This document shows positions 5,884-10,054 of a DNA stretch of 11,942 nt, one piece after another (position 1 is the first letter of the stretch; the number at the start of each line of letters is the position of its first letter). The stretch is taken from the IMG/VR virus record IMGVR_UViG_2529292735_000009, positions 1 through 11,942 of that record. The stretch is one strand, 5' to 3'. The translations under genes and the position numbers were made by a program. The DNA is from a virus (lineage: Duplodnaviria > Heunggongvirae > Uroviricota > Caudoviricetes). The notes beneath the pieces were generated by a model that had not been told where the DNA came from, ran no database searches, and worked only from the letters and a program-made list of their open reading frames with translations.

Positions 5884-5934
5884 CTCTTAACCTTATAACA
5901 TGTGTGGTCTGAAATAATAATTAAGGAGATTATC

Positions 5935-6507
5935 GTGCTATCTTACTTAATGGCAATTCACTTTGTTTTATTTGGAAACTCTACTAATTTAAAAGACTTC
6001 TGGAAACATGAAGTAATTCGGCGGAAACGTATGGATATCTGGAGGCTTTTAAGAGAGAAAAAGCAGCGTAACCGGAATTTCCTTTTCTGGTGGCGGTTGG
6101 CTAACGAAATGTATATTAATGGTAATAAATTACATAAGAAAGCAGCCAAAAAATTAAACAGTAAAATAATTAACAAGTTTGGTTGTGAAATAGGATTGGG
6201 CGCAAATATTGGAAAAGGGTTGACAATTCCCCATCATGCTGGAATTGTTGTTCATTTTGCTGTTGATGCGGGTGAAAATCTGGTATTACGACAGAATACT
6301 ACCATTGGACAGATAGATGGTGATATGCCTGGTTCAAGAGTAAAAATTGGTAGTAACGTTGATATCGGAGCTAATTGTTGCATCATTGGATTATCACGTA
6401 AAATTGGGGATAATGTAAAAATAGGTGCAATGTCTTTTATAAATAAAGATATACCATCAAACTGCACATATATAACTAAAAAGAGTGGTGTTGTATTGTA
6501 TAAATAG
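5935..6507 (+). CDS. Hexapeptide-repeat (left-handed beta-helix) acetyltransferase, serine-acetyltransferase/WcaB/LacA-like; probable prophage moron
   Basis: ORF 5902..6507. RBS AAGGAG 5923-5928, then GTG 5935 at 6-nt spacing (alternative starts GTG 5902, ATG 5950). Motifs typical of the CysE-like acyltransferase fold: FWWRLANEMYINGNKLHKKAAKKLNSKI, GCEIGLGANIGKGLTIPHHAGIVV, tandem [LIV]G hexapeptide repeats, C-terminal IGANCCIIG...IGAMSFINKDIPSN. G+C visibly far lower than the flanking tail genes. Confidence 0.8.
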   Translation: MLSYLMAIHFVLFGNSTNLKDFWKHEVIRRKRMDIWRLLREKKQRNRNFLFWWRLANEMYINGNKLHKKAAKKLNSKIINKFGCEIGLGANIGKGLTIPHHAGIVVHFAVDAGENLVLRQNTTIGQIDGDMPGSRVKIGSNVDIGANCCIIGLSRKIGDNVKIGAMSFINKDIPSNCTYITKKSGVVLYK

Positions 6508-6514
6508 AATACAT

Positions 6515-6555
6515 AAAGCCATCGATATTTCTGTCGATGGCTTTTTCTTTTTATT
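6515..6555. terminator. Intrinsic terminator between convergent genes: 11-bp perfect stem AAAGCCATCGA / TCGATGGCTTT, 8-nt loop, T-rich tail
   Basis: Stem 6515-6525 and 6534-6544, loop 6526-6533, then TTCTTTTTATT (6545-6555). On the minus strand the hairpin is followed by a weaker U-rich stretch, so it could also serve tfa. Confidence 0.6.
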
Positions 6556-7135
6556 GTGGGGCGACTGGCCACTCAACATCCGCTGCTACTGTTGTATCAA
6601 CACGATTCAACAATACCCGATATGTCTTCCATGCAGCCAGTAACGATGCCTCTTCCTCCGTCGCAATATCCAAATCTACGGCATCCTGAAGTGGCGCAAT
6701 ATGCTCACTGGCTACCTGCATCAGGCTGTTTTTTGTTTCTTCTGCCTCCCGTACCCGAAACAGTTTTTCTGCTTCTGCATCTTTCGCCCAGGATGTGCCG
6801 TTCCACTTCTGACACTCTCCATCCGGCGACAACCAGGTAACATTTTCCGGTAACGGACCGAGTTCAGAAATAAATAACGCGTCCCCTGATGCCACGTCAT
6901 AAACAGTTTTACCCCGATGATCTTCAACGAGATGCCACGATGCCTCATCACTGTTGAAAACAGCCACGAAGCCAGCCGGAATATCTGGCGGTGCAATATC
7001 GGTACTGTTTGCAGGCAGACCTGTATGAGGTGGAATGTATGCATCACCTTCCCCAATAAATTCATTAGTTCCGGCCAGCAGGTTATAAATTTTTATGGTC
7101 CGTGATTGTTCACTCATTCTGAAATCCATGTTCAC
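6551..7135 (-). CDS. tfa: Tail fibre assembly protein (Tfa, lambda/e14 TfaE-like chaperone)
   Basis: 194-aa ORF ([55 protein letters not shown]...), very close to E. coli prophage Tfa proteins as I remember them. GTG 7135 has no spacer after the GAGG RBS, so ATG 7129 is a likely true start. Confidence 0.88.
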
Positions 7136-7137
7136 CT

Positions 7138-7506
7138 CTACTTAATATCAGAGACAGAATATTGTTTATTGAGCGTATGGGTGGGAGTACCAATAACGAT
7201 GCTACTTCCGTGGCTATGTGCGCCAGAGGTGACATTACCTACGGGATTTTCTGGATTAATCCGGTGTATATGCGAACCAGGGCGAAAACGGTTATTAGCC
7301 TGATGTTGTATCAGTACATCATCAGCCTGATGTTCAGGGTTAATACAGACTTGCCCGGAACGTGAGCAACACGTCCGATAATCGCCGCATCCAATATATT
7401 TAGTATCCGCATAACGGCAAACAGAATTACCCGGACAGTATGCATATGTGCCAAATACTGCCGACTGGCGAGATTGTGCGTATTCCCAGTTAATTGATTC
7501 TGTTTT
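7138..7506 (-). other. 122-codon open frame without start codon, Cys/His-rich; probable C-terminal continuation of the macro-domain protein after a homopolymer indel, or relic of an older tail-fibre 3' end
   Basis: The frame opens exactly at the A6 run (plus-strand T6 7503-7508) where the macro domain ends, and stops at TAG 7140-7138, 2 nt before the tfa start. Translation: [60 protein letters not shown]...[33 protein letters not shown]. Confidence 0.4.
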
Positions 7507-8039
7507 TTATTAAAGTTATCCCATGCCTGCTTCATCTGTCGTGCAACACTTTCAAACGGCACCTGACCACATCCGGCCCCCATTGCAGGGAATACCACTG
7601 TTTTTATTTTCATGTCTGTCGTTGCGTTTTTATTGTGCTGAAAGATGGCAAGCAGAGCGGCCCAGGTTGCGTTATATACAGCGTCTGTTCCGTCAATTGT
7701 CAACGGAACACGCATTGTTGGCGCATGTACCAGCCAGGGGTGATGATTATGCCCCGTTTCAATGACAAATGCAGAACCTACAGGCTGTTCGCCGAGATAT
7801 TCACGAAGAATATGATTCTGAACGCGGGACTGTAACTGAGTACCGAAGAATGCGGTAATGGCGGCATCAACGCCACCATCCATCAGGCCGAAACTATTTG
7901 CCGCACTTACCATGCAGTCAAATTCTCTGATTGTTTCAAATGGCTTTCCGACAATATTCACACTATCTGCATTTGCAAATATCCGTTTAAATGCTTCAGC
8001 CATTTCTGTTACTGGTGCAGAAAGAATGAGCGTAATCAT
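7311..8039 (-). CDS. Macro-domain protein (ADP-ribose binding / ADP-ribosyl hydrolase fold), as read in the given frame; probably longer (see next feature)
   Basis: ATG 8039-8037 overlaps the H stop (ATGA). Macro signatures: [28 protein letters not shown] (compare VNAAN..L..GGGV..AI) and [26 protein letters not shown] (compare FPAIS.G.YG.P). G+C lower than the neighbouring tail genes. Confidence 0.75.
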
Positions 8040-10054
8040 GCAAGCCTCACAATATAGTTAAATGCGATGTTTTTTACGGTGTTTTCTGCGTTACCCGTAG
8101 CGTTAACGGTGATGGTATGCCCGTGTGAACCTATCGCAACGGAGTGTGTGTGTGCACCAATTCCTACCGTATGAGTGTGTGCGCCAATATTTACTGTGTG
8201 AGAGTGCCCCCCTGCGTTACTTGTTTTTCCAGTGCCAAGCCCTGAGTTATAACCAGCCGAAACACCATTACCAGCACCAGTGTTGCCAACAGGAATATTG
8301 TGTGAATGATCCCCGGCGCTATTCGTGGTTTTAGTGCCATGGTTAAATGAACTGGACGTCTTGGTACCGTAATCAAACGACGATGTGGTTTTCGTCCCCA
8401 AATCCGTACTGGATGCACTGGCGCTGTGGGTGTGCGATTTAATGCCGTCCTGTTCCTGAGACAATACTGCACGACCACTGGCGGGCTTGCCCTTAATCGT
8501 CCAGCTACGCATATCAGGGATCACGCCTGACGGATAAGCGGCTGCAAGTTTCGGGTATGCAGATTTGTCAAAAGTCTGCCCCTGCATCAGGGCATAACCA
8601 GACGGAACGGTATCTGATGGCCAAGGGATCGGTGCGCCAACCGGATAAAGTTCATGAGGCGAAATATACAGCGAATAAACAGAACCGTCCGTTAATCCTT
8701 CCGGCTTATTAGCAGAATATGCTGGTGAAGTATGAATCGTTACGCTGGCGTTACTGGTATAATCCCATTGAATATTTACACCAGTCGCATAATTTCCGAT
8801 TGCAACGTAAATATCGTAAGTATCACCAGATGTATTGACCCAGGCAAAATTTGTAAACCCTGCCGATGTGCGCTGCCATAAAGCACCAGTAATCCCCTTC
8901 GGATTACCATTACCTGCACGCAAAACAAGTTCAGATATACCTGCCTGTTGAGGTGAGCCGACGTTATATCCAGCCCCACCAATCAACGTAATTGAAACAA
9001 CAGAACTCGCCTGCGGCATGGTTACCGTTGCTAATTTGAACCAACCAGCACCACTGCTGAATGACATAGTTGTTGAGTTAAGCGTACCAATATCTTTCGG
9101 TGTCAGTGTTATATCCGCTGAAAGCGCCTTACCATTCACCTTACGGGCAGAAGGTACCCGACCATTCGCATTGTCATTAGCTGCTTTCACTGCTTTCGAT
9201 GTCGCAGCAAGCGTTTCAGATGTGCTGTTAGTCGCGCTGCTTAGCTGGACAATCCCTTTTTGTGCTGTCGTAGCGTCCTGAGCGGTATATTTCCCGTTAG
9301 CAAGGTCATATGCTGCCTTTACCGCCATTGGTGTTGCCGCCAGCGTTTCAGAATCGCTGTTGGTGGCGCTACTGAGCTGGACAAGGCCTTTTCGCGCTGT
9401 GGTGGCATCCTGCGCAGTATATTTCCCGTTAGCAAGATCATACGCGGCCTTTACTGCTTTCGGCGTTGCAGCCTGCGTTTCAGACACGCTGGTAGTGTCG
9501 CTACTGAGTTGAACAAAGCCTTTTTGCGGTCAGCGAGGCATCCGGGGTGACGTCGTGACTGTTCATGCTCTTTCAGTTTGTCATCCACGTAATCCACTGT
9601 GGCCATCACCATGGTGTTATCCACGGTAAGCGCCACGGTGGCAGTGCTGGATACGGTCAGAATGGTGCGAAATGTTTGTGCACGACCGGACCCTTCGGCA
9701 ACGGCTGGCTTGTAACTTTCGGCAGTATTGACCCACCGCGATTAAATCGCCGTGCTCATCAAATACACCAATTTCCCGGATCCAGAATCCGCCCGTTTCA
9801 GGAGGAATAACCAGCTCCGCAATAATGCGGTTCTGATGTGTTGCGTCCAGGATGACGCGATTAACAGTGTGTCGCCACACCTCATGCACCAGACGGGTCT
9901 GCTTACTGTCTGGTGTGGGCAACGTGCCGCCACCGTCGCCCACGGCCATATGAGTCAGGCGGACAGGCTTACCATCTGGCGCGGCTGCCTGAGCTAATTT
10001 TTTGGCACCCGTATCGGTGATAAGGGTTTTAAATTTTCGTGTTGTGGTACTCAT
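8036..10054 (-). CDS. H: Tail fibre protein (P2 gpH-like N-terminus, tandem fibre repeats, gp37/Stf-like HxH C-terminus); three frameshifts at 9732-9734, 9545-9548 and 9521-9525
   Basis: ORF 9617..10054 ([28 protein letters not shown]...MAVGDGGG...HEVWRH...[10 protein letters not shown]) matches the P2 H N-terminus; ORF 9451..9636 ([28 protein letters not shown]) and ORF 8036..9487 continue it. Fragments join colinearly if one base is removed from CCC 9732-9734, GGGG 9545-9548 and TTTTT 9521-9525. C-terminus carries [32 protein letters not shown] repeats. Confidence 0.9.
9150..9530 (-). repeat. In-frame tandem repeat, ~132 nt (44 aa) period, ~2.8 copies, inside the tail fibre gene
   Basis: Protein repeats KG[FLI][36 protein letters not shown] occur three times; the DNA repeat is visible on the plus strand (tatatttcccgttagcaag[g/a]tcata... 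twice). Boundaries approximate. Confidence 0.6.

Follow-up and report, generated by a model that had tools for sequence, protein, structure and literature searches.

The window analyzed here is a stretch of 11,942 nucleotides (nt) from a tailed phage of the Caudoviricetes (IMG/VR record IMGVR_UViG_2529292735_000009) and corresponds to the entire contig AIHM01000003.1 of assembly GCA_000250455.2, from Escherichia coli DEC14C. On its minus strand, a tail-fiber gene (H) and the gene of the tail-fiber assembly chaperone (tfa) are separated by an insert that opens with a reading frame for a macro-domain protein of 242 amino acids (aa), deposited as EHX96976.1. This macro gene is the subject of the present analysis, and the features of its junction are as follows.

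8036 to 10054, minus strand: tail-fiber gene H (P2 gpH / Stf type), from its translation and Pfam matches to Phage_fiber_2 (E = 5.7e-48) and Collar
8036 to 8039, minus strand: ATGA overlap, in which the macro ATG (8039-8037) overlaps the H stop TGA (8038-8036)
8039 to 7311, minus strand: macro-domain open reading frame (ORF) of 242 aa, from translation
7503 to 8039, minus strand: first frame of the macro gene, residues 1-179, core of a Ymx7-like macro domain
7503 to 7508, minus strand: A6 homopolymer (T6 on the plus strand), one base fewer than the A7 of relatives, with a frame shift of -1
7444 to 7503, minus strand: second frame, residues 180-199, last conserved helix of the macro unit, from translation, conservation, and structure model
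7321 to 7443, minus strand: second frame, residues 200-240, four-cysteine module AYCPx4Cx16Cx6CIx3HQxDD, from the family alignment and the ratio of nonsynonymous to synonymous polymorphism (pN/pS)
7141 to 7320, minus strand: second frame, residues 241-300, His-rich tail with GxHxH motifs (SHIH, AHSH, PTHT)
6551 to 7135, minus strand: tfa, tail-fiber assembly chaperone (Caudo_TAP; PF02413, E = 6.9e-40)

The macro ORF is start-coupled to H by the ATGA overlap, as had been noticed in an earlier reading made from the letters of the window alone (hereafter, the sequence-only reading), and this junction is present in relatives wherever the fetched sequence extends that far. A GAGG Shine-Dalgarno sequence for the macro start lies within the final H codons (GTGAGGCTTGCATGA). 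The second frame does open at the 7503-7508 homopolymer, as had been stated, and runs without a stop from 7503 to a TAG at 7140-7138, which makes 121 codons and not the 122 counted previously. This TAG stands 2 nt before the GTG at 7135 that starts the listed tfa ORF, the distance originally given, and 8 nt before the ATG at 7129-7127, which RefSeq uses as the tfa start in relatives and which has AGGTG (7137-7133) ahead of it. The G+C content of the insert (45.3%) is indeed lower than that of H (50.4%) and tfa (48.0%), the whole window being at 51.9%, and no internal promoter or terminator above shuffled expectation was detected inside the insert. Taken together, these features go well beyond what chance would give.

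Length of the macro product and origin of the split

Comparison with relatives indicates that the two frames belong to one gene. Megablast of the region returned E. coli prophages with a 903-nt gene annotated as "macro domain-containing protein" and flanked on one side by "phage tail protein" and on the other by "tail fiber assembly protein." In the listed E. coli records, the matching stretch is 903 nt long, or 891 nt where the protein is a 296-aa form, and one record is partial. In the alignment with two E. coli relatives, exactly one A is missing from the window (A6 versus A7), and the gene of these relatives translates as a single 300-aa protein. The repaired reading, searched against 5.8 billion proteins, gave 1,712 matches, the best of which (P0001; 300 aa, 579 member sequences) is 99% identical. 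Furthermore, the run is A7 in all 37 related loci that were read, namely, three annotated relatives and 34 IMG/VR loci recovered by a pattern scan that tolerated A5 to A8. The true product is one protein of ~300 aa uniting both frames, in agreement with the sequence-only reading, and the split ORF of DEC14C should be annotated as one 300-aa gene. The protein has three parts: a macro domain (residues 1-199), a four-cysteine module (residues 200-240), and a His-rich tail (residues 241-300).

The missing A has company in the contig. When it is set against the intact relatives L042 and L043, nine single-base indels are found (~439, 1418, 2120, 2214, 2726, 7502, 9521, 9544, and 9731), and they break six genes: sheath, tube, gpE, tape-measure, macro, and H, of which the last is cut into ORFs 10054..9617 and 9487..8036 because of single-base insertions at ~9731, 9544, and 9521. 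Both A7 runs hit by an indel lost one base, and seven sites gained a base in or just beside a homopolymer. The DECA genomes, the collection of DEC14C, were presumably pyrosequenced. The presence of nine homopolymer-associated indels in one contig leads us to conclude that the A6 split is most probably a homopolymer sequencing error, failing which it would be a genuine slip at a mutation-prone run. For annotation, the many probable single-base indel artifacts of the DEC14C contig also matter; taken as a whole, the contig seems rich in errors, or else the prophage is defective.

Alternatively, the frameshift may be genuine and DEC14C may harbor a decaying, defective prophage, with pseudogenes in place of the macro gene and five other tail genes. 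The six broken genes fit such a decay, as do the other frameshifted macro genes found in two of the 34 IMG/VR relatives (L020 1461-2365 and L034 11721-12625, of which one has two 1-nt insertions and the other a G5 run expanded to G7) and the many Salmonella records that hold only C-terminal macro fragments. However, all nine lesions of the window are 1-nt changes in or beside homopolymers, a pattern typical of draft contigs of the pyrosequencing era (if the platform is the one we assume); the 12-kb contig contains no large deletions, insertion sequence (IS) elements, or premature stop substitutions; and the surrounding sequence is ~97% identical to that of intact prophages. We regard decay as possible, though doubtful.

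The A run is also a true weak point that slips in other strains: NCBI, ENA, and Logan assemblies contain 16 distinct 242-aa sequences shifted at this place, which we grouped by eye into at least six allelic backgrounds. Several frameshifted alleles (P0297, P0301, P0303, P0304, and P0306) have NFNKKKKQ at the run. Judging from the protein sequences, the NKKKKQ of these lineages would correspond to an A9 tract derived from a longer one, which implies that a C-to-A change may have lengthened the tract to about A10 and that a base was then lost. Long A runs could slip during transcription. Such alleles could be taken as signs of a deliberate switch, in which phase variation or ribosomal or transcriptional slippage at the A run would deliver either full-length or truncated macro protein. 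We consider this highly improbable, since all 37 loci are in frame, as are the listed E. coli records save one partial match, and since the zero-frame site reads U AAA AAA and is not a canonical X XXY YYZ heptamer. In addition, no significant RNA structure was found downstream (z = -1.88), a conserved macro helix is missing from the truncated product, which gains 63 out-of-frame residues, eight other single-base indels lie in the same contig, and the shifted alleles stand at a few percent, as ordinary slippage or error would give. A programmed -1 ribosomal frameshift in particular was rejected as unlikely, given the frame of the heptamer, the z score of the downstream fold, and the single-frame gene of the 37 relatives. 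We do not take the split for a regulatory device.

Fold, motifs, and constraint along the protein

The macro-domain identity of the N-terminal part, proposed in the sequence-only reading from its motifs, is borne out by profile, fold, and motif comparisons and by a match to yeast Ymx7. Pfam Macro (PF01661) is matched full length, over profile positions 1-118, with a score of 68.4 bits where 22 is the cut-off (E = 7e-19), and relatives of the window protein score 65 to 78 bits. The similarity to Macro_2 (PF14519) is weak, and among NCBIfam models nothing came near the curated cut-offs (53 bits versus 246 for an equivalog). The protein adopts the three-layer alpha/beta/alpha macro fold in our comparison and falls in the Ymx7-like ADP-ribose-1''-phosphatase subgroup, which is closest to it in both sequence profile and structure. 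The motifs read from the sequence are N48 SFGLMD G55 G56 V57 D58 and G154-A-G-C-G158 (within FPAMGAGCG); across 88 homologs, N48, G56, and D58 are conserved in at least 90% and G158 is invariant. The predicted ADP-ribose-binding and catalytic motif of the macro domain is intact.

In a search of 1.84 billion cluster representatives, residues 1-195 fell within a large family of ~200-aa stand-alone macro proteins (2,335 matches), in which the conserved macro unit is kept through INWxYAxxRQ. Since the unit extends that far, the first ~20 residues of the second frame constitute its last helix, which is lost by the frameshift. The AlphaFold2 model built from 88 sequences, which supersedes an earlier and poor one from 17 close sequences (predicted local distance difference test [pLDDT] of 55), has a helix at 185-199, with a pLDDT of >95 for residues 1-190 and low confidence past residue 200 (block means of 95 for residues 181-190 and 83 for residues 191-200). 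Of the Cys/His-rich C-terminal module announced by the sequence-only reading, the four-cysteine part is conserved, but those first ~20 residues have to be taken from it and given to the macro unit. The same macro subfamily was also seen in four long proteins that look eukaryotic by eye (P0134, P0138, P0155, and P0211), in which it appears, again by eye, to be fused to WD40-like repeats, to an RNA-binding domain, or to a rhodanese and a dual-specificity phosphatase.

Beyond the macro unit, C202, C225, and C232 are invariant in the family alignment, C208 is conserved in at least 90%, and HQxDD comes next, followed by a variable run of GxHxH-type motifs. The four-cysteine module may bind a zinc ion or form disulfide bonds. 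A profile search of 5.8 billion proteins with the C-terminal 107 residues found only fragments of the same macro family and no tail-fiber proteins, the C-terminal region had no PDB relatives at E values up to 10, and tblastn with the 121-aa C-terminal stretch found macro genes only. The C-terminal 100 residues are without relatives outside this phage macro family. The idea that the Cys module is a captured fiber tip was rejected, since none of the profile, PDB, and tblastn searches found fiber relatives; for the His-rich tail by itself, such an origin is a weak possibility.

The three segments differ in constraint. Among 20 distinct 300-aa alleles, pN/pS was 0.096 for the macro domain (residues 1-199), 0.138 for the Cys module (residues 200-240), and 0.87 for the tail (residues 241-300); a second computation, which took in the flanks, gave 0.08, 0.155, and 0.72, respectively, to be compared with 0.125 for the last 40 codons of H and 0.20 for tfa. 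The four-cysteine module is under purifying selection, which confirms that the downstream frame encodes a conserved protein, whereas the His-rich tail is near-neutral and weakly constrained. The tail also varies in length: relatives range from 255 to 300 aa, and shortened forms of 255, 269, 274, and 289 aa are frequent.

Distribution, insertion site, and the tail fiber

Of 5,426 complete E. coli genomes, 128 carry the gene; its matches in E. coli genomes fall at 131 places, 22 of them on plasmids. The prophage of E. coli A1 lacks it: the same H end is followed directly by tfa (TAATG), and the Tfa proteins are near-identical. Alignment with A1 reveals a clean insertion of ~905 nt that extends from the stop of H as far as codon 2 of tfa, and the AGGTG that serves tfa as ribosome-binding site comes with the insert. 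The A1 prophage demonstrates that the macro gene is not needed to build this fiber. The sequence-only reading, which did not recognize the gene as a standard P2 component, was correct on this point, given that we find an optional insert of limited occurrence that is absent from an otherwise matching relative.

The order fiber gene, macro gene, Caudo_TAP gene, with overlapping stops and starts, was found in Gifsy-1 (a lambdoid siphovirus), SEN5 and Chuche (P2-like), an Erwinia myovirus, an Enterobacter Mu-like prophage, and a P1-like phage-plasmid. Hence, the presence of the gene between H and tfa in related P2-like phages, which the sequence-only reading suggested looking for, is established for SEN5 and Chuche and extends to unrelated phage types. 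All translated fiber genes end in NIA(F/Y)NYIVRLA, and all matching tfa genes begin with M(T/D)F(K/R)MS. Synonymous divergence is 0.10 in the macro gene versus 0.25 in the flanks on either side, and this lower value, together with the conserved flanks, fits a spread between phages by recombination in the flanks. We see it as an accessory gene of temperate enterobacterial phages, optional and horizontally mobile, whose constant address is due at least in part to conserved flanks that allow homologous recombination. The closest tail-less homolog, P0121 (L044 4134-4757; 207 aa, 64% identity), lies in a different phage between methyltransferase and ParB-like genes, upstream of the terminase. This is a non-structural accessory region, and macro units are thus also passed around as separate genes in regions of this kind.

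The gene family is already catalogued, in RefSeq as "macro domain-containing protein" (e.g., WP_000631344) and in PHROGs as phrog_2613, of unknown function; our search of the literature found no specific description of a macro gene at a fiber junction. The P1-like element mentioned above (L050) is the 101-kb E. coli plasmid pMB17626_2, which has darA and carries, after its tail-fiber gene, a fiber-macro-tfa-acetyltransferase block; phage P1 presumably has its invertible fiber segment at the matching position. Salmonella records often contain only a C-terminal macro fragment, as a hypothetical protein of ~100 aa (P0271, P0276, and P0290), some of them on >100 contigs, and in Salmonella phage SEN34 (L006 3501-3683) a macro remnant adjoins an O-acetyltransferase gene. 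Disruption of the macro gene seems common in Salmonella prophages.

The invariable address of the gene raises the question of whether its product is a physical accessory of the tail fiber, the GxHxH tail trimerizing or docking on the fiber tip with the help of Tfa and the macro domains being carried on the virion as a fiber-tip decoration or enzyme. In at least five unrelated tail modules, the gene always lies between a fiber gene and a Caudo_TAP gene, its start overlapping the preceding stop; the GxHxH motifs resemble the fiber end; and with the His-rich tail as the tblastn query, the only similarities outside the family were to tail-fiber genes, albeit weak (E = 0.003 to 0.7). Moreover, some database entries are named "phage tail protein," and PHROG 14717, "tail protein," matches the macro part. 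Yet these names are based on context only, and the A1 relative, with a very similar H C terminus and a near-identical Tfa, shows that the gene is dispensable for fiber assembly. The tail is nearly unconstrained (pN/pS of 0.72 to 0.87 versus 0.125 at the true fiber end), variable in length, and often truncated, and three family members had no match to Phage_fiber or Phage_fiber_2 (PF03406 and PF03335) at E < 0.1, whereas H scores 5.7e-48. Finally, the ADP-ribose-binding motifs are conserved, the known substrates are intracellular, and the closest tail-less homolog sits in a non-structural region. Based on these observations, we consider a fiber-attached protein unlikely.

Downstream of tfa, one further feature bears on the transcript.

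6515 to 6544, strand not assigned: terminator-like bidirectional hairpin with a 13-bp stem and T-runs on both strands, between the convergent tfa and acetyltransferase genes

This hairpin is likely the end of the H-macro-tfa transcript. The convergent gene (5902-6507, plus strand) is of low G+C (34%) and codes for a hexapeptide-repeat "serine acetyltransferase." The tfa-acetyltransferase pair is also found in the macro-less E. coli A1 (L041), in the Enterobacter Mu-like prophage (L047/L048), in the P1-like phage-plasmid, and in phage JL22; the acetyltransferase gene appears to travel together with the fiber-tip block and may be a lysogenic-conversion gene. At the other end, the middle of H (~8230-9240) is mosaic and diverges strongly from both closest relatives, with numerous indels of more than one base and a difference in length of 132 nt. 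In the N-terminal part and over the last ~60 codons, the sequence is conserved, a pattern typical of fiber-domain swapping.

Proposed role and comparison with known systems

Our working model is that the macro gene would be expressed late, from the fiber operon, with its translation coupled to that of H through the ATGA overlap. The product would act in the cytoplasm of the infected cell as an enzyme on, or a binder of, ADP-ribose conjugates or NAD-derived molecules during late infection, and its most plausible purpose would be to blunt ADP-ribose-based host immunity. An enzymatic rather than structural role is favored because the tail-less homolog P0121 adjoins ParB-like and methyltransferase genes. 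A counter-defense role for this putative late ADP-ribose hydrolase or binder is our best guess and, in our opinion, a reasonable idea, whereas any specific target would be speculative. Overall, we find it fairly probable that the gene is a mobile accessory gene whose ~300-aa macro protein, split by error in DEC14C, has a late role directed at ADP-ribose.

Several points weigh against this picture. Counter-defense genes are usually expressed early, and the macro gene is embedded in a late structural operon. The domain is not DarG- or AdfM-like in particular (the PADLOC DarG model gave 13.8 bits, E = 0.007, over 39 residues, and PADLOC returned no meaningful match), and in structure it comes closest to an ADP-ribose-1''-phosphatase of the housekeeping type. 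A physical link with the fiber could instead lie behind the His-rich tail and the invariable place by fiber and chaperone genes. Lastly, the shifted 242-aa alleles come from different sources, one of them on a 5.2-Mb contig, and the change in DEC14C may be real.

A recent preprint offers a more specific scenario: the side tail fiber and its chaperone govern the susceptibility to type II Thoeris, in which a His-ADPR signal is read by a macrodomain effector (bioRxiv 10.64898/2026.06.04.730250). This finding suggests why an ADP-ribose-binding protein might be coexpressed with fiber and chaperone. By analogy, the macro protein could be an antidote encoded beside the trigger: folded fiber together with Tfa would trigger NAD-derived signaling, as was shown for type II Thoeris, and the macro protein would bind or destroy the signal or reverse the ADP-ribosylation of late phage products. 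Its cotranslation with fiber and Tfa would make it act just when the trigger appears, and the four-cysteine and His-rich C terminus might tether it to the fiber/Tfa complex. We regard this scenario as quite improbable.

The demonstration that phage macrodomains can be counter-defense enzymes is recent, with AdfM acting against DarTG2. The macro family described here belongs to a different, Ymx7-like class, in which we found no characterized member, and its strictly conserved address between fiber and chaperone genes spans P2-like, Mu-like, P1-like, and lambdoid phages of E. coli, Salmonella, Enterobacter, and Erwinia. The existence of natural phages with and without the gene, with the same fiber end and chaperone, makes a clean comparison possible on hosts with ADP-ribose- or NAD-based defenses.

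Among known systems, the RefSeq/PHROG 2613 family, including STM2588.1n of Gifsy-1 and gp19 of SEN5, is the same gene family at the same fiber-tfa position. The window gene is 97 to 99% identical in DNA to its closest E. coli copies and 68% identical in protein to the Salmonella copies, and unlike the members compared, it has a one-base deletion. The MacroD-type hydrolases (E. coli YmdB, Oceanobacillus OiMacroD, human MacroD1/2, and Af1521) space their catalytic Asn, Gly, and Asp as the phage protein does, such that N48, G55, and D58 of the latter correspond to N30, G37, and D40 of OiMacroD, the residues mutated in the listed OiMacroD entries. A second glycine-rich phosphate loop is also present in both, but identity with the phage protein is low, at 17 to 23%.

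The best sequence-profile match is yeast Ymx7 (YMR087W; PDB 1njr), an ADP-ribose-1''-monophosphatase (E = 9.2e-17, profile positions 4-180). The two proteins have in common the motifs VSxxNSxGxxxGGxDxA and PGLxTGxxxVP and an N-terminal extension ahead of the core macro fold. However, they are only ~21% identical, Ymx7 has neither the four-cysteine module nor the His-rich tail, and the phage protein, a putative enzyme, is encoded within a tail-fiber operon.

AdfM of chimalliviruses and T4 removes the ADP-ribosylation deposited on DNA by DarT2, and the AdfM proteins (PhiKZ gp104, PhiPA3 gp108, and T4 Tk.4), which are phage macrodomain proteins too, protect the phage from DarTG2 (PMC13309987; bioRxiv 10.1101/2025.11.20.689424). 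They set a precedent for counter-defense by macrodomains of phages. AdfM is DarG2-like, with a catalytic Asn and Lys, whereas the phage protein of the window is nearest to Ymx7, and AdfM genes are early or their products nucleus-targeted, whereas the macro gene described here lies in a late fiber operon.

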